A stretch of 64,000 nt of DNA. It comes from a virus. Lineage: Duplodnaviria > Heunggongvirae > Uroviricota > Caudoviricetes. The stretch lies in IMG/VR virus record IMGVR_UViG_3300033405_000002, positions 179,595 through 243,594 of that record; one strand, written 5' to 3'. This document shows positions 3,646 to 13,993 of the stretch, piece by piece. Position 1 is the first letter of the stretch; every line of letters begins with the position of its first letter. A model generated the notes under the pieces. It did no database searches. It worked only from the letters and a program-made list of their open reading frames with translations, and had not been told where the DNA came from. Both the position numbers and the translations under genes were made by a program.

Positions 3646-3692
3646 CACAAAAACACAGGTTTTAGGCTACGAGTTTAGGGATAGAGGCTATT

Positions 3693-7941: not shown

Positions 7942-7984
7942 GTAGAAGAAGATTGATGGTCGTGCGTTTTACAGAAGACCGTAA

Positions 7985-8248
7985 GACAATAGGCACCAGA
8001 CACGTTATCGGACGCGGGTTCGACTCCCGCCGCCTCCACCATAAAGATTTGGTGGTACTCCCACAGCAGGGCTTATGGGGGCGTCACGGCTTCGACGGTG
8101 AATGATGCGAGGATAGCGCCAACGACCCGATGATCGGTTCCCAGCGTTAATAGGGGGCAAAAAACAGTAAACGCCAACGCTCCAAAGGCAATGGCTGCTC
8201 ATGCTTAATGAGCCTGACCCGGTGGGTCAGTTCCTCAACACCACAAAA
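7985..8248 (+). ncRNA. ssrA: tmRNA (ssrA), circularly permuted two-piece type. The acceptor piece ends with ...GGACGCGGGTTCGACTCCCGCCGCCTCCACCA at 8041. The coding piece starts with GGGGGCG at 8077
   Basis: 3' T-arm and acceptor nearly identical to E. coli ssrA; coding-piece 5' GGGGGCGTCACGGCTTCGACGG resembles the tmRNA 5' end; the 5' strand GGGGGCG pairs with the 3' strand CGCCTCC and gives a G3:U70 pair; candidate tag ORF GCC AAC GCT CCA AAG GCA ATG GCT GCT CAT GCT TAA TGA at 8173-8211; helix-5-like hairpin follows. Confidence 0.75.
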
Positions 8249-8250
8249 GA

Positions 8251-8273
8251 ACCCGCGCAAGCGGGCTTTTTTG
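8251..8273 (+). terminator. rho-independent terminator after the tmRNA
   Basis: CCCGCGCAAGCGGGC hairpin followed by a T6 run. Confidence 0.7.
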
Positions 8274-8292
8274 TTTGTGGTAGAATCCTGTT

Positions 8293-8490
8293 ATGAACAC
8301 CACACTTGGTCCTTGGCTGCGCGGCGATTATCTCGACGCGGGCATTCTCGCGCTTCTCATCATCTGGTTTACTCTTGACCGTCTCAATTGCTATTTCTTC
8401 GATCTGTGGCAGGTGTTCCGCCGCTGGCTTTACATCCTAAACATTTTCACTTCGCGCCCGTGGGACGAGAATGGCAGGAGACCGCTGTAG
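8293..8490 (+). CDS. small hydrophobic protein
   Basis: 65-aa ORF; ends with TAG, which overlaps the GTG of the next gene. Confidence 0.4.
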   Translation: MNTTLGPWLRGDYLDAGILALLIIWFTLDRLNCYFFDLWQVFRRWLYILNIFTSRPWDENGRRPL

Positions 8491-8837
8491 TGGGACTCAT
8501 CAAGCTTTTCAGTGACGGCAAGTACGAACCGCCGAACCCTAATCCGAAGAACTTCAAGCTCATCCACGCGCAGTGCGCAGAAGACAAGCGGACAATCTGG
8601 GTGTGCGAAGTTTACTATCCGGGATGCACCACACTGGATGGCAGGAAAATTCTCGTCTACGAGTGCGAATTTGACGCCTTTCTCGCTTTCCTGCGCGGCA
8701 AAGAGATGGACCCGCACTTCCTTGACCCGTGGGATAAGCGACTGGGCCCGATTGCCAGATTTCCGGCGACCGAAGAAGGCATTGATGACGCGCTTCATTT
8801 CGCTGACTGGAAGAGCAGGCAGGATCGAGTATTATAG
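8490..8837 (+). CDS. hypothetical protein (GTG start)
   Basis: GTG at 8490 overlaps the upstream TAG; ends with TAG; in frame with the next gene and separated from it by one codon. Confidence 0.45.
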   Translation: MGLIKLFSDGKYEPPNPNPKNFKLIHAQCAEDKRTIWVCEVYYPGCTTLDGRKILVYECEFDAFLAFLRGKEMDPHFLDPWDKRLGPIARFPATEEGIDDALHFADWKSRQDRVL

Positions 8838-8840
8838 GCT

Positions 8841-9053
8841 ATGAACAAAGAAATTGTGCGCGAAGAAGTGGTCAAGGCGCAGTACGAATACTATTCGAAC
8901 GCCGCGAGTCTTTGGAAGAATGACTTGGAAGCTGCCTTGGAGCGCGGGGATAAAGCAGCGGCTTGCTACTATTTCAGCACGTACATCAAACTCAAGGCGC
9001 TCGTCCGTGAGATCGAAACATACGCACAGCCTTATGCAATCGAGGTCTGGTGA
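8841..9053 (+). CDS. hypothetical protein
   Basis: 70-aa ORF. Confidence 0.5.
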   Translation: MNKEIVREEVVKAQYEYYSNAASLWKNDLEAALERGDKAAACYYFSTYIKLKALVREIETYAQPYAIEVW

Positions 9054-9268: not shown

Positions 9269-9509
9269 GCATTACTGTGAATTCGTTATTCTATTTGAGG
9301 GCGACCAAGACGCTTACGGCAACCCTGTTGATGAAGTGGTGCAGTGTGGCAAGGTTGCACACTTCAAAGACGAATTGGATAGCTGGTGGTGCGCCGACCA
9401 TTATGATGAGTTGATGGACATGGCAAACATACAGTACGTTGAAGGTCAGGGAGTTTGCCGCATCTGCAACTGCGAATTTTTCAACGGCGAGTGCAACTGC
9501 TCATCATGA
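9261..9509 (+). CDS. Cys-rich small protein, paralog A (WWCADHYDE motif)
   Basis: 82 aa; shares the W(W/F)CADHYDE motif with the next gene. Confidence 0.5.
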   Translation: MTEHYCEFVILFEGDQDAYGNPVDEVVQCGKVAHFKDELDSWWCADHYDELMDMANIQYVEGQGVCRICNCEFFNGECNCSS

Positions 9510-9796
9510 ATTTCTGTCAATACATTGTCGATTTTCACATGGAGCCGGGGGAAGACGGTGACCCGATTTTCTGCGATAAGCCCGCCCCGATCAAATGGGA
9601 TGGCTGCTGGTTTTGCGCCGATCATTACGATGAGGTCGTGGCGAGCGCGGCCAAGCCGAAGGGCGGTTACATCTATCGGCAAGGCATGGCGTCCATGCCG
9701 GGACTTGCCTTCCCAGACGAGAAGCTGTTCATTGGCGTAGATTTTGACGAGCTTAAAAACGCTGTATTTTCATTCTGTTACGGCTCGAAAAAATAA
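9506..9796 (+). CDS. Cys-rich small protein, paralog B (CWFCADHYDE motif)
   Basis: ATGA overlap with the upstream gene; tandem paralog. Confidence 0.5.
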   Translation: MNFCQYIVDFHMEPGEDGDPIFCDKPAPIKWDGCWFCADHYDEVVASAAKPKGGYIYRQGMASMPGLAFPDEKLFIGVDFDELKNAVFSFCYGSKK

Positions 9797-9809
9797 TTTT
9801 TCGCAAATC

Positions 9810-9839
9810 TGGACAAATTTTCCGAATTCGCAGTATAAT
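9810..9839 (+). promoter_or_regulatory. sigma70-type promoter TGGACA-N18-TATAAT with a conserved upstream AAAAATAATTTTCGCAAATC element
   Basis: near-identical ~50-bp copy at 16227-16278. Confidence 0.6.
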
Positions 9840-9858
9840 AGCAGCAGGAGAAGCAAAC

Positions 9859-10320
9859 ATGAAGCTCCAACTCGAAGGTCTCTAGGTTCATCCTTACTTC
9901 TACGTCTTTGTGCGACAGGACATTTCGCTCGCGCAACAGATAGTGCAGTCCAATCACGCCACATTTGAAGTTGCTCGTCGTCTCCCAACAGACTATAGCG
10001 AAGTTCCGCACATGGTTCTTATCGGTGTGCCCGATAAGGCTGCGCTCTTCCGCGTGGTCGAAAAACTCAACAAAAATGACATAGGACATCAGGTCTTCTA
10101 CGAGCCTGATGACAACATGGGTCTGTCCGCCGTGGCAACCGTGCCACTCGAACAGAGCCAGCGCCGCTGCCTGTCCAATTACGCGATCTGGCGCGATACG
10201 ACCAAGGACAAGCAGCAACGCGAAATGCTGGCGGAACGCCTCGCCGGACGCGCCGTGCCGCCTGATGCGTGGCTCGACTGCGGAACACCATATCTCAGTG
10301 AAGGGGCAGCCAATGACTAA
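9859..10320 (+). CDS. PTH2-family-like peptidyl-tRNA hydrolase. It has an in-frame TAG at 9883-9885 after the leader MKLQLEGL, so it needs amber readthrough. Alternatively it is a GTG-9910 start or a pseudogene
   Basis: AGGAG RBS then ATG 9859; TAG at codon 9; downstream frame 'VHPYFYVFVRQDISLAQQIVQSNHATFEV...HMVLIGVPDKAALF' resembles the PTH2 beta1-alpha1 core (VVR.D....AQ..HA); there is no ATG, GTG or TTG between the TAG and GTG 9910. Confidence 0.5.
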
Positions 10321-10567
10321 GCGCGTCTACATCAAGCTGTGGGTCTACAACTACGACAGGTCGCCGCGTGCGCACTGGGTGCAGCACAACTGTAAGTCCA
10401 TCGAGCAGGCGCAGCATCTTGTCAAACGGCTGCGCTCGCTGCAAGGCGTCCTGTACTCGGACAATCGCACTGGCGGCTGGCTGATGCGCAACCACAATAT
10501 TGACGGTTTTGTTGAGCACGGTGGAATCGAAGGCATTTACGAAGAGATCACTAGGAGAATACAATGA
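10313..10567 (+). CDS. hypothetical protein
   Basis: ATGACTAA overlap with the upstream stop. Confidence 0.5.
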   Translation: MTKRVYIKLWVYNYDRSPRAHWVQHNCKSIEQAQHLVKRLRSLQGVLYSDNRTGGWLMRNHNIDGFVEHGGIEGIYEEITRRIQ

Positions 10568-10956
10568 CAAACTCTGAACTCGCACAGCAAGCCTACGAGA
10601 TTAACAACCAGATTTATGAGATCGCCAACGAGGTGTTTGGCAAGTGCCGTGAGGCCGGAATTATCGACAAGCATTACGGCTTCGACAAGTATGAGCTTGA
10701 CCAGAAAGGTATGGAGATCACAGGCGAATACTACTCCTGTGGCGATACGGATTACGAGTCGTTCCACATCCCCTACGCCGATCTGGACAACATCGACGGT
10801 TTTGTCCAGAGACGCACGGCTGAGATTGCCGAAGAGAAGCGCAAGGCGATTGAGAAGCGTGCCGCTGAAGATGAGCAAAAGAAGGTAGCGGCGGCACAGG
10901 CTGAGCGCGAGCAGTATCTTAAACTCAAGGCAAAGTTCGAGGGAGCAGGACAATGA
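10564..10956 (+). CDS. hypothetical protein with a Lys/Glu-rich coiled-coil C-terminus
   Basis: 130-aa ORF. Confidence 0.55.
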   Translation: MTNSELAQQAYEINNQIYEIANEVFGKCREAGIIDKHYGFDKYELDQKGMEITGEYYSCGDTDYESFHIPYADLDNIDGFVQRRTAEIAEEKRKAIEKRAAEDEQKKVAAAQAEREQYLKLKAKFEGAGQ

Positions 10957-11624
10957 AAACGAAAGACCTAATCAGAGAGTTGCAGGAAGCCGACCCGTCC
11001 GGCGAGATTGAAGTTTGCGTGAACAACGTAGACATCTTCTGCGTGACGACGGAACCTGCTTATTGGGATGGCAGACTGCAACTTCTGGTTCGCGATGAAA
11101 AGCTGAAGCCTTATTTCGACGTCGTTGGCGGCAAGTACGTGACGAGCGGGTCGAAGGTGGTGATCCAGCCAATGAGCATCACAGATGTTCTCTGGGACAA
11201 CCCCGAGGCCCCTGTGGATTACTCAGAGCTTGGGGAAGCAACCGAACAGCGCTACAAAGCAACCGATGACGAGACACGGAAAGCCGCCCGCGACGTCGAA
11301 TTGAAGGTTGACATGGACGCGTTTCATCGTTGGGTGGAGAAGAAAACTCAGGAGATTCGTCCGGGCAACAGCGACAAGTGCCGGAGCGCGGCGGATTATT
11401 TTTACGAGAAGAACCTGAGTCCGAAAGACCCGGTGAAAGATTTGCCGCCGAAGAAAGAAAAGATGGGCGGTATCCTTGGGATCGGTGCAAAGGAATATGA
11501 AGTTTGGCCTAGCTGGAATGAACGCCGGGAAGCGAAGTGGGACGACGATCTGGAAGTTTACTGGCGCGGCGGCTGGGGCATCCGTAAAAAAGGTGAGACA
11601 AACGGAGACACATACAGTGATTGA
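10953..11624 (+). CDS. hypothetical protein; its N-terminus is paralogous to the ORF at 16068
   Basis: MKTKDLIRELQEADPSGEIEV compared with MTVREFIMELSDYDPDAEIVV. Confidence 0.55.
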   Translation: MKTKDLIRELQEADPSGEIEVCVNNVDIFCVTTEPAYWDGRLQLLVRDEKLKPYFDVVGGKYVTSGSKVVIQPMSITDVLWDNPEAPVDYSELGEATEQRYKATDDETRKAARDVELKVDMDAFHRWVEKKTQEIRPGNSDKCRSAADYFYEKNLSPKDPVKDLPPKKEKMGGILGIGAKEYEVWPSWNERREAKWDDDLEVYWRGGWGIRKKGETNGDTYSD

Positions 11625-11790
11625 TCTTTTGAAAATCTTCACGCGGACAGAGCGCGTGTGCTGCTGCGGTTCAGAAAACCCCGGTTCACACAAACTGCGT
11701 TGCGTGAAGTGTGGCAAAGATTATTGCTGGGGGATTTTATACGGTGTGACGTGTCCGCAATGCGGATACTGCGCCGAAATGGAAGATTAA
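11617..11790 (+). CDS. Cys-rich zinc-ribbon small protein (GTG start)
   Basis: CCCGSENPG...CVKCGKDYC...CPQCGYC. Confidence 0.4.
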   Translation: MIDLLKIFTRTERVCCCGSENPGSHKLRCVKCGKDYCWGILYGVTCPQCGYCAEMED

Positions 11791-11794
11791 GTTT

Positions 11795-11954
11795 GCGCGG
11801 GTAGCTCAGTGGGAAGTTGGAAGACGGGTTGATCTCCGTTACGACAGCTTCATGAGCGCCATCGGTGAGACAGGGGGAATGAGAGGGACGCTTCTTTGGA
11901 AGCCTGTCAATAAACGTGAAAGCAAGGGTGGTTCGATTCCATCCCCGCGCACCA
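11795..11954 (+). tRNA. tRNA-like gene, aberrant at 160 nt. It has canonical acceptor 5' and D-stem 5' ends (GCGCGGGTAGCTCAG) and a canonical T-arm, acceptor 3' strand and CCA, but about 90 nt are inserted between them
   Basis: acceptor GCGCGGG pairs with CCCGCGC; T-loop TTCGATT; paralog of the tRNA-like gene at 12432; no canonical D-stem 3' or anticodon arm identified. Confidence 0.35.
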
Positions 11955-11955
11955 A

Positions 11956-12028
11956 GGGCGGTTAGCTCAGTGAAAGAGCGCTCGGCTTGTCCGAGAGGTC
12001 GGGGGTTCAAGTCCTTCACCGCCCACCA
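11956..12028 (+). tRNA. tRNA-like gene with a shortened anticodon arm (5-bp stem CTCGG/CCGAG closed by a 5-nt loop CTTGT)
   Basis: acceptor GGGCGGT/ACCGCCC; D-arm GCTC...GAGC; T-loop TTCAAGT; encoded CCA. Confidence 0.4.
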
Positions 12029-12033
12029 AGTTA

Positions 12034-12155
12034 TGCAGGATAAAGGCTCAGGCGAAGATAGGTCGCACTTATCAGACCAAAAGCTGAAGTTGGCAACACG
12101 GCGCTTGCCCTCATCGTGAGATGAGAAACCGGGTTCGACTCCCGGCCCTGCACCA
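12034..12155 (+). tRNA. tRNA-like gene, long at about 120 nt. It has a T-arm and acceptor with a hairpin variable arm (CTCATCGTGAGATGAG), but no canonical D-arm or anticodon arm
   Basis: T-arm CCGGG-TTCGACT-CCCGG; 5' TGCAGGA pairs with 3' CCCTGCA; candidate anticodon hairpin has an 8-nt loop. Confidence 0.3.
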
Positions 12156-12289
12156 AATGTAAAACGGGCACACGCTGTTAGGGAACCGCGCCGTAAATGT
12201 TCTGTTAGAAAGAGCAGGACACTAGGCAGCGGACAGCAGCTTGCGGAGCCAAGTACGGCAAACTGAAAACGCGGGAAATACCATGGTGA

Positions 12290-12344
12290 GTACCGCGCAA
12301 GTAATCCGCATTCGCCGGAGGTTCGATTCCTCAGGTGCCCACCA
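12290..12344 (+). tRNA. tRNA 3'-half-like element (T-arm, acceptor 3' strand and CCA); no convincing 5' half found
   Basis: GGAGG-TTCGATT-CCTCA then GGTGCCC-A-CCA. Confidence 0.25.
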
Positions 12345-12354
12345 AGTTTGTTGC

Positions 12355-12430
12355 GCCTGATTAGCTCAGCGCAGAGCACCGGACTTTTAGTCCGGGGGTC
12401 GGCTGGTTCAACTCCGGTCATCAGGCTCCA
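12355..12430 (+). tRNA. tRNA-Lys(UUU)
   Basis: acceptor GCCTGAT/ATCAGGC; anticodon arm CCGGA-CTTTTAG-TCCGG; T-loop TTCAACT; CCA encoded. Confidence 0.6.
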
Positions 12431-12431
12431 T

Positions 12432-12505
12432 ACGCGGGTAGCTCAGAGAAAGAGCATCCGGCGCAAGCTGGAAGGTCGGTGGTTTAATTCCATCCCCGCG
12501 TGCCA
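12432..12505 (+). tRNA. tRNA-like gene in which the anticodon arm is replaced by a 6-bp hairpin capped by a GCAA (GNRA) tetraloop
   Basis: acceptor ACGCGGG/CCCGCGT; D-arm GCTC-AGAGAAA-GAGC; T-loop TTTAATT; TCCGGC-GCAA-GCTGGA. Confidence 0.4.
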
Positions 12506-12506
12506 C

Positions 12507-12541
12507 GGGGCTGTGGCGTTAGTAGCGTCGCAGCCCCACCA
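12507..12541 (+). other. acceptor-stem minihelix-like element: a 7-bp stem, a 17-nt loop, then A-CCA
   Basis: GGGGCTG...CAGCCCC-A-CCA immediately after the tRNA-like gene. Confidence 0.3.
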
Positions 12542-12607
12542 AGTTCATGAGTTTGTTGGAGTTGTATCGGTAGCCAAAGATGGTTGGTTTTCCGTATACT
12601 TGGGTAT

Positions 12608-12684
12608 GCGCCCGTAACGCTTAGCGGCTAAAGCTGTGGTCTCTAAAACCGTGATCGGGGGTTCGAGTCCCTCCGGGCGCACCA
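12608..12684 (+). tRNA. tRNA with anticodon CUA (amber suppressor type). It has two extra nt between the acceptor and the D-stem
   Basis: acceptor GCGCCCG/CGGGCGC; anticodon arm GTGGT-CTCTAAA-ACCGT with U33, CUA at 12643-12645 and A37; T-loop TTCGAGT; CCA encoded. Confidence 0.5.
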
Positions 12685-12713
12685 ACCTTCAGTATTAACC
12701 CCCAGCACAAGAT

Positions 12714-12817
12714 GCCCCGGTAGCTCAATAGCAGAGCAGCGGTCTCTAAAACCGTCCTCACTAGAGCAGCGGATGTTAATCCGTTGGTTACGGGTTCAAG
12801 TCCCGTCCGGGGTTCCA
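12714..12817 (+). tRNA. tRNA with anticodon CUA (amber suppressor type) and an about 34-nt variable arm
   Basis: canonical D-arm GCTC-AATAGCA-GAGC; anticodon arm GCGGT-CTCTAAA-ACCGT with CUA at 12746-12748; variable-arm hairpin CGGAT-GTTA-ATCCG; T-loop TTCAAGT; acceptor GCCCCGG/CCGGGGT. Confidence 0.55.
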
Positions 12818-12818
12818 C

Positions 12819-12893
12819 ACTCCTGTAGCTCAACGTGGCTAGAGCGCGGTCCCTAAAATCGCAGATGCGAGTTCGATGCTCGCCGGGAGTGCC
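12819..12893 (+). tRNA. tRNA with anticodon CUA (amber suppressor type, C33 variant)
   Basis: acceptor ACTCCTG/CGGGAGT; D-arm GCTC-AACGTGGCTA-GAGC; anticodon arm GCGGT-CCCTAAA-ATCGC with CUA at 12853-12855; T-arm GCGAG-TTCGATG-CTCGC; CCA. Confidence 0.5.
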
Positions 12894-12897
12894 AACG

Positions 12898-12926
12898 ATT
12901 GACAAATTCACTAGACGCGGTATTAT
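12898..12926 (+). promoter_or_regulatory. sigma70-type promoter TTGACAAATT...TATTAT, related to the TGGACAAATT family
   Basis: gaTTGACAaattcactagacgcggTATTATgtg, right after the last tRNA. Confidence 0.5.
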
Positions 12927-13034
12927 GTGAATGGCGATAGTACCTCGCAATAGAGAACCGTCAACATCCGATACGTAGAAGCTTCATGAAGTCGTTCGGT
13001 GAGAATCAGGGCTTGCGCGTGGTTGAGCTATGTG

Positions 13035-13058
13035 GGGGTGTGCAGCGCTGCACACCCC
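13035..13058 (+). promoter_or_regulatory. perfect 24-bp palindrome (candidate operator) between the promoter and the RBS
   Basis: GGGGTGTGCAGC|GCTGCACACCCC; no trailing T-run, so it is not a terminator. Confidence 0.45.
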
Positions 13059-13077
13059 TGCGCTATCTAGGATCGAA

Positions 13078-13569
13078 ATGAAACTCGCACGGATCGAACA
13101 TTGGCGTTGCGGTGAACCTATCGGTTGGAAGAACGGCAGCGGCTCCACGTATGTGTGGGTGCCCGATTCAATGACCGAAGAAGAGTTCAGCACGTTCTGT
13201 GAGAACGCCCGCCAATCTTACCTCCTCGTGGAAGAGGGGTTCAAAAAGAAAGCTCCGGTCTATCCACCGGGATACGGCCCGTCCATCGAGCATTACCCTG
13301 ACACCATGACGGTCGCTGAGATCAAGGCCGATCACGCAAAGAAAACCGCTGCATACAAAACGTACACAGATGAGTGCAATCGGGCGCGGAAGCCGTATTC
13401 GTGGCATCTGCAATTAGTCAGTGGTGGTACAATCAGACTGTTCTATGATGTGAAGCCAGAGCTTGAGTACGAGCTTTCATGGGGCCATAGACACGGCACC
13501 ACGATTGAGCACAGCGGCACTGACTTCGGCGATTATCCACCAAAAACAGAAGACGAGGACGGACTGTAA
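13078..13569 (+). CDS. hypothetical protein
   Basis: AGGA RBS; 163 aa. Confidence 0.5.
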   Translation: MKLARIEHWRCGEPIGWKNGSGSTYVWVPDSMTEEEFSTFCENARQSYLLVEEGFKKKAPVYPPGYGPSIEHYPDTMTVAEIKADHAKKTAAYKTYTDECNRARKPYSWHLQLVSGGTIRLFYDVKPELEYELSWGHRHGTTIEHSGTDFGDYPPKTEDEDGL

Positions 13570-13859: not shown

Positions 13860-13993
13860 ACATTGACCGGAATCCGAAACGTATGTCGGAGGAAGGCAAT
13901 CCTTGGCAACAGGTTAATTGCACGTGTGCTCAACACATAAAATACCGAGCCGAGTCCGCCAGATGACCCGTTAGCAATGTGAGCCGTGTCCTA

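Follow-up and report, generated by a model that had tools for sequence, protein, structure and literature searches.

How can a phage gene whose reading frame meets an amber codon after eight codons give a full-length enzyme? The question is raised by a locus in a 64,000-nucleotide stretch of the Caudoviricetes record IMGVR_UViG_3300033405_000002 (positions 179,595 to 243,594), referred to here as the window. An earlier note on this DNA had described a gene for a PTH2-like peptidyl-tRNA hydrolase interrupted by an in-frame TAG, and had proposed that phage transfer RNAs (tRNAs) reading this codon form a switch on the enzyme. The analysis reported here makes it very likely that a conserved gate at this locus lets a divergent PTH2-like hydrolase be translated only with the help of a suppressor tRNA. 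Sequence comparison further indicates that the gate is far more general than one window suggests, and that it recurs across very divergent jumbo phages.

The gene was read as the following parts.

9810..9839, plus strand: predicted sigma-70-like promoter, from its consensus match, with TGGACA (9810-9815), an 18-nucleotide spacer and TATAAT (9834-9839)
9846..9850, plus strand: Shine-Dalgarno sequence AGGAG, 8 nucleotides 5' of ATG 9859, from sequence reading
9859..9882, plus strand: leader MKLQLEGL, eight codons from ATG 9859, assigned as the probable true N-terminus of the hydrolase from the sequence and from a sense-codon fusion in a relative (L102)
9883..9885, plus strand: the gate, an in-frame amber TAG with G as the next base, from the sequence, two assemblies and homologous loci
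9886..10320, plus strand: PTH2-fold hydrolase domain, 144 codons with a TAA stop at 10318-10320, from AlphaFold, Foldseek, a profile search of PDB chains and PHROG 3668
9910..9912, plus strand: GTG taken as the start by gene callers and rejected here as the real start, as it lies inside the first β-strand (β1) and the codon is not conserved

The promoter and ribosome binding site that the earlier note had seen before ATG 9859 are both present. The promoter-like site agrees with the sigma-70 consensus at 11/12 positions and is the joint best in 9400-13100, tied with a site at 12899-12926. After the eight-codon leader and TAG the same frame begins VHPYFYVFVRQDISLAQQIVQSNHA and runs to the TAA, as had been claimed. 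The first start codon past TAG is GTG 9910, nine codons on, and the claim that no ATG, GTG or TTG intervenes was borne out. The gene-caller product from this GTG has 136 residues. Promoter, leader and TAG are base-for-base the same in two separate ENA metagenome assemblies. Because these assemblies are independent, the TAG is not an assembly error; the earlier note had asked for a sequencing error to be excluded.

Is the product a member of PTH2? An AlphaFold model of the window product, made with 52 family sequences, had a mean predicted local distance difference test (pLDDT) score of 88.9 and showed the PTH2 alpha/beta fold. When the model was compared with the PDB using Foldseek, the best 13 matches were all PTH2 (E 1e-5 to 5e-4, target template modelling score (TM-score) 0.67-0.74, 108-120 aligned columns). 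The PTH2 structures MJ0051, AF2095, human Bit1, TA0108, PH1539 and Sulfolobus Pth2 were matched over the whole target length. The window product also matched PHROG 3668 'hydrolase' (E 2e-4), a profile of the family matched the PDB chain 24bt_A 'peptidyl-tRNA hydrolase' (E 4.8e-4), and the homologous domain of XacN1 ORF364 scored 25.3 bits on Pfam PTH2, above threshold. Through such intermediates the window protein is predicted to be a PTH2 member at the superfamily level. The relationship proposed earlier is therefore clear from the fold search, though the Pfam match of the window product itself is below threshold, a point taken up below. That weak match arises only when residues 5' of GTG 9910 are included. 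In the model β1 comprises residues 4-10 after TAG (YFYVFVR) and GTG 9910 is residue 9, so a start at GTG 9910 would remove the first core strand, in agreement with the earlier argument.

The near-invariant residues of the family are D12, Q18, Q21, H24, E73-P74-D75, R93 and Y99; the conserved histidine (H24) and the acidic E-P-D are retained. The family contains 3,132 clusters at 50% identity (E <=1e-3), and NCBIfam contains no model for it. A search of one genome from each of 185,579 species gave only 5 matches, of which 4 lie on contigs of metagenome-assembled genomes (MAGs) and 1 in an isolate assembly, on a short contig. Outside phage contigs the family is essentially absent. Nearly half of 260 database proteins of the family are truncated within or after β1.

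Is the TAG peculiar to the window? Homologues were found by tblastn in jumbo phages of many hosts. The survey consisted of the window plus 71 viral contig loci from a scan of IMG/VR, 72 homologous loci in all (L numbers denote loci). In 53/72 loci an in-frame TAG precedes the conserved motif, 5-15 codons ahead of the first motif position. Two loci (L017 and L032) have TGA at the gate position, and one has a TAG gate before a fused N-terminal domain. Dereplication at 90% identity left 38 TAG, 2 TGA and 1 fused-domain TAG out of 55, and at 60% identity 18/31 clusters have TAG-gated members. The earlier note had suggested looking for the same TAG in related phages; most relatives have this TAG where a sense codon or an obvious start would have counted against the proposal.

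The start codon lies 1-12 codons 5' of the gate TAG, and the commonest leader has two codons, ATG plus one. Shine-Dalgarno equivalents (AGGAG, GAGG or AAGGA) precede the leader ATG in most homologues. The first four homologues opened had a Shine-Dalgarno sequence, ATG, 1-2 codons, TAG and then the conserved Y.FVR.D strand. Their leaders read as follows.

Arash: ATG CTG TAG
ME3: ATG ACT TAG
uncultured phage LR756511: ATG ACT CAC TAG
GAP32: ATG GCA CAA TAG

GenBank annotations cut these four genes short at the N-terminus. Cultured carriers of the gate include GAP32, CBB, ME3, Arash and RsoM2USA, and altogether the gate is present in >50 contigs and >10 cultured phage genomes, with intact downstream frames, at 30-80% protein identity. 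In RsoM2USA (MG752970, ~68.9-69.2 kb; L079, ~1470-1830) the gene reads AAAGGAG...ATG TTG TAG ATT TCT and lies between RsoM2USA_93 and _92, where GenBank has no annotation. XacN1 ORF364 is probably gated as well: judging from its sequence, the Shine-Dalgarno sequence serves ATG-AAG-TAG, but the annotated ATG is four codons past the TAG. Further gated copies are concealed in protein databases as calls made with genetic code 15 (MHQV..., MLQI..., MTQI...). A TAA-gated copy was found in L098 at 3650-3660, on the Neisseriaceae MAG contig RXKI01000052.1, where AAGGAGAATTAA is followed by ATG CAT TAA ACT CAA ... YVYIFVRKD. Two loci, L016 and L071, look truncated.

The frequency of the gate was compared with its surroundings in the same loci. 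TAG precedes 26% of long open frames there; ~3% of the frames are gate-like, and half of those belong to the PTH2-like family. The binomial probability of the gate count against the local TAG frequency was 4e-11. Among 157 gate-like open reading frames (ORFs) in ~1.3 Mb of loci, the PTH2-like genes formed the sole large or recurrent cluster, with 48 members. The base after TAG was also counted in the 38 dereplicated genes: A in 21, G in 16, C in 1 and U in 0, so that 37/38 have a purine. Bossi, and Miller and Albertini, are said to have observed that a purine after an amber codon favours suppression. U at +4 is the strong termination context in bacteria (PMC5289835). A search for a read-through-stimulating RNA structure was negative in the window, as the fold of 9840-9960 was no better than that of shuffled sequence (z 0.33).

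The next question is whether the stop is read as sense or whether translation starts past it. Two in-frame TAGs are present in the gene of L034 and L036, whose contigs measure 488 and 499 kb, one in MGFT[TAG]... and a second inside the domain, ...AFYDP[TAG]ANEHPH..., and the conserved sequence goes on past both. In L102, from the window's clade, AAG stands where relatives have TAG, and leader and domain form one ORF. Between the stop and the first possible start the codons vary mostly synonymously (TAC/TAT, TTT/TTC, GTN, CGN/AGR). In many homologues GTT, GTA, GTC or ATC stands in the place of GTG 9910. Because these are non-start codons, no downstream start is conserved. The full-length hydrolase thus appears to require that the gate stop be decoded as sense. 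The earlier suggestion that the enzyme needs amber suppression gains support from the conserved TAG, from L102, from L034 and L036 and from the codon constraint.

Some family members carry N-terminal fusion domains of ~150-170 residues (XacN1 ORF364, which is L078, together with L075, L027/L038 and L070/L073), and none of these domains matched Pfam. The XacN1/L075 type has an H-D-x-G-K motif and keeps an ATG-x-TAG leader. The L027/L038 and L070/L073 types have an ordinary ATG and lie directly 3' of a CUA tRNA. No Pfam match was obtained for the genes neighbouring the PTH2-like gene.

If the stop is decoded, which tRNA would decode it? Three candidates with the anticodon CUA lie downstream in the window.

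12608..12684, plus strand: suppressor tRNA 1, CUA (G1:C72, A73), from ARAGORN and the Rfam tRNA model (36.9 bits)
12714..12818, plus strand: suppressor tRNA 2, CUA (G1:U72, U73), with a ~34-nucleotide insertion in the variable region, from the Rfam tRNA model (56 bits, full-length match 12714-12814)
12819..12894, plus strand: suppressor tRNA 3, CUA (A1:U72, G73), from ARAGORN and the Rfam tRNA model (42.6 bits)

These are the three CUA tRNAs that had been placed 2.7 kb downstream; two were recovered by ARAGORN and the third by the Rfam tRNA model. Suppressor tRNA 2 was missed by ARAGORN, and its anticodon loop, read from the sequence, is CTCTAAA. Its insertion (CCTCACTAGAGCAGCGGATGTTAATCCGTTGGTT) lies between the anticodon stem and the T arm and is longer than a normal variable arm allows. 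An intron-like insert is possible, as is decay of this copy.

The association of gate and suppressor is general. A CUA tRNA was found by ARAGORN on the same strand within 10 kb in 48/53 TAG-gated loci, at a median distance of 1.9 kb and in 14 loci within 1 kb. Suppressors make up 78/572 tRNAs in the surveyed loci, and in L020, L022, L030, L045, L065, L069 and L072 the suppressor is the sole tRNA, or one of two, within 20 kb. The TGA-gated loci L017 and L032 have a UCA tRNA, at distances of 263 and 516 bp from the gate, and no CUA tRNA, and 0 TAG-gated loci have a UCA tRNA; this covariation of stop and anticodon is seen in two TGA cases only. The nearest relatives of L017 are TAG-gated, so the switch between TAG and TGA occurred within the clade. 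A suppressor tRNA also lies <1 kb upstream in 10/17 of the loci outside the gated classes, so that enzyme and tRNA are associated beyond the gate itself. Linkage and covariation together lend support to the self-contained suppressor-dependent switch suggested at the outset.

Several other observations concern these tRNA regions. The 9 kb examined around the TAA-gated gene of L098 contained no tRNA. Atu_ph07 has a published UCA suppressor tRNA and two putative Pth genes, and no tblastn match was found between the Atu_ph07 genes and the PTH2-like family. tRNA-like genes with anticodon loops other than 7 nucleotides, for which ARAGORN gives 2- or 4-base 'anticodons', occur in the window at 12432-12505, in L005 at 11016-11090 and 11411-11486, and in L012 at 10525-10600. 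The window copy is accepted by the Rfam tRNA model with 46 bits. An ORF of 260 residues on the minus strand (11639-12421) is antisense to the tRNA cluster and appears as a gene call in public assemblies (L100/L101, 5230-6012). The tRNA-Gln and tRNA-Lys genes overlap this ORF, which is almost certainly not a real gene.

These results suggest how the gate would work. The gene at 9859-10320 would encode a PTH2-fold hydrolase of 153 residues with UAG as codon 9. Ribosomes would start at ATG 9859 and meet one of two fates at UAG. Host release factor 1 (RF1) would terminate there and leave a harmless peptide of 8 residues, or one of the three phage CUA tRNAs (12608-12894) would insert an amino acid and give the full enzyme, including the essential β1. 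Enzyme output would thus report, and depend on, the activity of the phage suppressor tRNA. A gate at codons 2-13 and a purine next to the stop should give the suppressor an advantage over RF1 and limit the cost of failure, as only a tiny peptide would be wasted.

A number of observations weigh against this interpretation. The window read-through product scored 12.8 bits on Pfam PTH2 (PF01981; E 0.14), below the gathering threshold of 23 bits. The lysine of the PTH2 G-K motif is reportedly catalytic in work on Sulfolobus Pth2. At its position the family has Gln or Glu (GKK of 24bt_A aligns with a-q-Q); the window has A16-Q17-Q18 in this region, and other members have E-Q or S-V. Because the canonical catalytic lysine is apparently missing, the name describes the fold rather than an activity. 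The models point to a divergent PTH2 branch in which 'peptidyl-tRNA hydrolase' names the fold and ester hydrolysis is putative. About 1/4 of the surveyed loci are ungated, and across the ~3,000-cluster family the ungated share is probably larger still. A start codon is found close to the stop in three loci. In L032 a GTG directly follows TGA, an ambiguous case; in L024 an ATG directly follows TAG, and in L044 an ATG lies at +4. With an ATG so closely after TAG, reinitiation is possible in L024 and L044. Not every gate has its tRNA at hand: in five TAG-gated loci no CUA tRNA was found in the locus sequence examined, and L083, a TAG-gated relative of L017, has no suppressor within 6 kb. The GAP32-like L057 has tRNA-Arg(CCG) (13893-13968) where relatives have the CUA suppressor, and keeps its TAG gate; its suppressor may be elsewhere in the 358-kb genome. 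When the suppressors were compared with ~490 canonical tRNAs of the loci, their nearest matches were spread over Lys, Thr, Arg and Ile with low scores. Lastly, feedback, feed-forward and timing could all be compatible with the data.

Could the hydrolase be made without read-through? The leader might be a separate regulatory mini-ORF, and the hydrolase might be translated by reinitiation, from GTG 9910 or from a non-canonical codon. Gene callers do pick GTG 9910, a start codon closely follows the stop in L024, L044 and L032, and mini-ORFs of 2-3 codons, such as the lambda bar minigenes, are known regulatory or toxic elements. Even so, we consider this quite improbable. A product begun at 9910 loses β1, the equivalent codon is often a non-start codon and no other start is conserved. 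The codons just past the stop are constrained at the protein level, the type of stop covaries with the anticodon, L034 and L036 carry a TAG within the domain, and L102 joins leader and domain through a sense codon. A different possibility accepts read-through and denies the phage tRNAs a part in it: the stop would sense host RF1, or be passed by near-cognate host read-through, and the suppressors would be unrelated neighbours in a tRNA cluster. The five gated loci lacking a nearby suppressor fit this picture, and prfB is a precedent for an early stop as sensor (PMC12421855). Some proximity to tRNAs is also expected because the gene sits in tRNA-rich regions. Set against this are the share of suppressors among the tRNAs (78/572), the many loci where the suppressor is the sole tRNA or one of two within 20 kb, and the switch of the anticodon to UCA exactly where the gate is TGA. 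Unrelated neighbours are as improbable as a separate mini-ORF.

TAG might also be a sense codon (code 15) in the whole genome or in an extended block of its genes, in which case the hydrolase would be one of many recoded genes. Phage CUA tRNAs are the mark of code 15 in phages (PMC11210395), some pipelines used that code to call family members, and the gene has two TAGs in L034 and L036. In the window, however, TAG terminates ~10/54 plus-strand ORFs, and a search of the 64 kb for gated or interrupted ORFs (a short leader followed by a long, coding-like frame without a start) found none except that at TAG 9883. TAG is an ordinary stop elsewhere in the window, and the many in-frame TAGs and the TAG avoidance that mark code 15 are absent. 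Moreover, in ~1.3 Mb of related loci no gated family other than the PTH2-like one recurs, the hosts of the cultured carriers use the standard code, and the XacN1 authors saw no similarity extending past any of 18 amber stops. ORF coverage under alternative codes says little, as TGA-as-sense always wins at this guanine plus cytosine (G+C) content. Early second stops behind TAG-terminated genes, a possible adaptation to a resident suppressor, were also looked for; TAG-ending frames instead had the longer median distance to the next stop (22.5 vs 15 codons), a figure given no weight because the pooled loci are too unequal in G+C. On balance recoding is, if anything, slightly less probable than the two alternatives above. 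There remains the simplest explanation, a sequencing or assembly error or a decaying pseudogene. A single stop near the start does resemble a random nonsense mutation, and L016 and L071 look truncated. Two identical independent assemblies, and intact downstream frames in >50 contigs and >10 cultured phages, leave this explanation with almost no probability, and the comparative data have effectively refuted it already.

What would a suppressor-dependent gate on a hydrolase be for? It would most likely make the amount of a (peptidyl/aminoacyl)-tRNA ester hydrolase follow how much nonsense suppression takes place. Any one specific purpose can be named only tentatively. Proportional clean-up of read-through products, a homeostatic brake on the suppressor similar to that of release factor 2 (RF2), and recycling of short peptidyl-tRNA(CUA) with positive feedback could fit alike. 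ORFs of two or three codons are a classic source of peptidyl-tRNA drop-off that needs Pth. Suppressor read-through makes non-stop complexes handled by transfer-messenger RNA (tmRNA), and peptidyl-tRNA lost from the ribosome in the early cycles of elongation is a substrate of Pth (PMC3985003). This literature, a nearby tmRNA and the cheap early gate lean towards a role in rescue or cost control. A more specific proposal is a two-part module in which the hydrolase acts specifically on species ester-linked to the suppressor tRNA and the amber gate closes an RF2-like autoregulatory loop. The orphan suppressors of XacN1, RsoM2USA, ME3, GAP32 and relatives would then be mainly parts of a circuit, not recoders. 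The action of the hydrolase in such a module might be to recycle short peptidyl-tRNA(CUA), to strip the amino acid from the suppressor, or to free chains once UAG has been decoded. We hold the module to be possible, with the chances somewhat against it.

How does the gate compare with known systems? In phages using code 15 (TAG to Gln) or code 4 (TGA to Trp), such as crAss-like phages and Lak megaphages, a phage CUA or UCA tRNA likewise decodes in-frame stops in a standard-code host, and expression of the interrupted genes depends on the phage tRNA. There, however, recoding affects tens to hundreds of genes, for the most part late ones and at scattered positions, whereas here one family (occasionally a second) has a single stop at codons 2-13, conserved beside the tRNA across unrelated jumbo-phage lineages. 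The gene prfB, for RF2, is similar in that a factor for termination and tRNA-ester hydrolysis has its level set by a conserved early in-frame stop; it differs in that rescue is by +1 frameshifting and direct self-sensing rather than by a dedicated suppressor tRNA. With bldA of Streptomyces, a tRNA-Leu(UUA) for TTA codons, the gate shares a dedicated tRNA that licenses a small set of genes bearing its codon. That codon is a rare sense codon with dispersed targets, whereas here it is a stop codon, and tRNA and target adjoin. The lambda bar minigenes may tentatively be likened to the leaders as 2-3-codon ORFs ending in a stop; they are stand-alone and toxic, whereas the leaders are in frame with the hydrolase gene. 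With PTH2 itself (PF01981; MJ0051, AF2095, Sulfolobus Pth2, human Bit1/PTRH2) the family shares the overall fold and the helix motif R.D....Q..HA. Identity is only 10-18%, the 'GK' lysine is replaced by Gln or Glu, and the family has its own E-P-D and R..Y motifs and some N-terminal fusions.

Iyer et al. 2021 (PMC7824862) had already recorded PTH2 genes in jumbo phages. Orphan suppressor tRNAs have been reported without explanation in XacN1, RsoM2USA, Atu_ph07, phiKp24 and phage G. Full-text literature searches, whose coverage was incomplete, found neither a description of the gate nor a connection between PTH2 and orphan suppressors, and priority is unproven. tRNA-mediated read-through of stops in phages is already known. 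What sets this variant apart is one conserved N-terminal gate on one enzyme family, in otherwise standard-code genomes and with a paired tRNA.

Other elements lie near the gated gene, one of them the tmRNA mentioned above.

7949..8299, plus strand: permuted two-piece tmRNA, tag ANAPKAMAAHA, from ARAGORN and Rfam RF04321 (69.6 bits at 7981-8208)

The tmRNA is 1.6 kb 5' of the gated gene. A tmRNA lies upstream of the PTH2-like gene in ~15/72 loci, and the window's clade (L005-L015, L018, L068) preserves the order tmRNA, PTH2-like gene, CUA tRNAs. It was treated as syntenic context and not counted as part of the switch.

A second gated family of ~150 residues was seen in L010 (9575-10030) and L011 (11972-12430), with AGGAGG...ATG ACA TAG AGC or ATG ACA TAG GAC. 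The two copies are 70% identical, have no Pfam match and sit between the PTH2-like gene and the CUA tRNAs. A window ORF at 10564-10956 (MTNSELAQQ...) is a weak homologue (E 6e-4) in a syntenic position and has AAC at the position of their TAG. Two other TAGs of the window were considered as further gates and rejected. The region of 14382 is accounted for by normal starts and a six-codon ORF in another frame, and at 8835 the second ORF has its own ATG, so that a fusion is possible and unneeded. The latter region, 8388-9053, contains same-frame ORFs of 149 residues (PHROG 13501) and 70 residues separated by TAG-GCT-ATG; an amber read-through fusion is possible there.

What does the gate mean for these phages? 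It gives the long-unexplained orphan suppressor tRNAs a target. It would also constitute a simple natural circuit, in which one tRNA gene licenses one enzyme gene, and which is kept across phages sharing ~30% protein identity. The hosts of the cultured carriers include Cronobacter, Pectobacterium, Erwinia, Serratia, Yersinia, Salmonella, Acinetobacter, Ralstonia and Xanthomonas. An annotation error is exposed as well: many entries of the family are N-terminally truncated, and in RsoM2USA the gene is missing from the annotation altogether. If it is true that the hydrolase is specific for suppressor-linked tRNA species, the module would offer a new tool and a new principle for the control of nonsense suppression.

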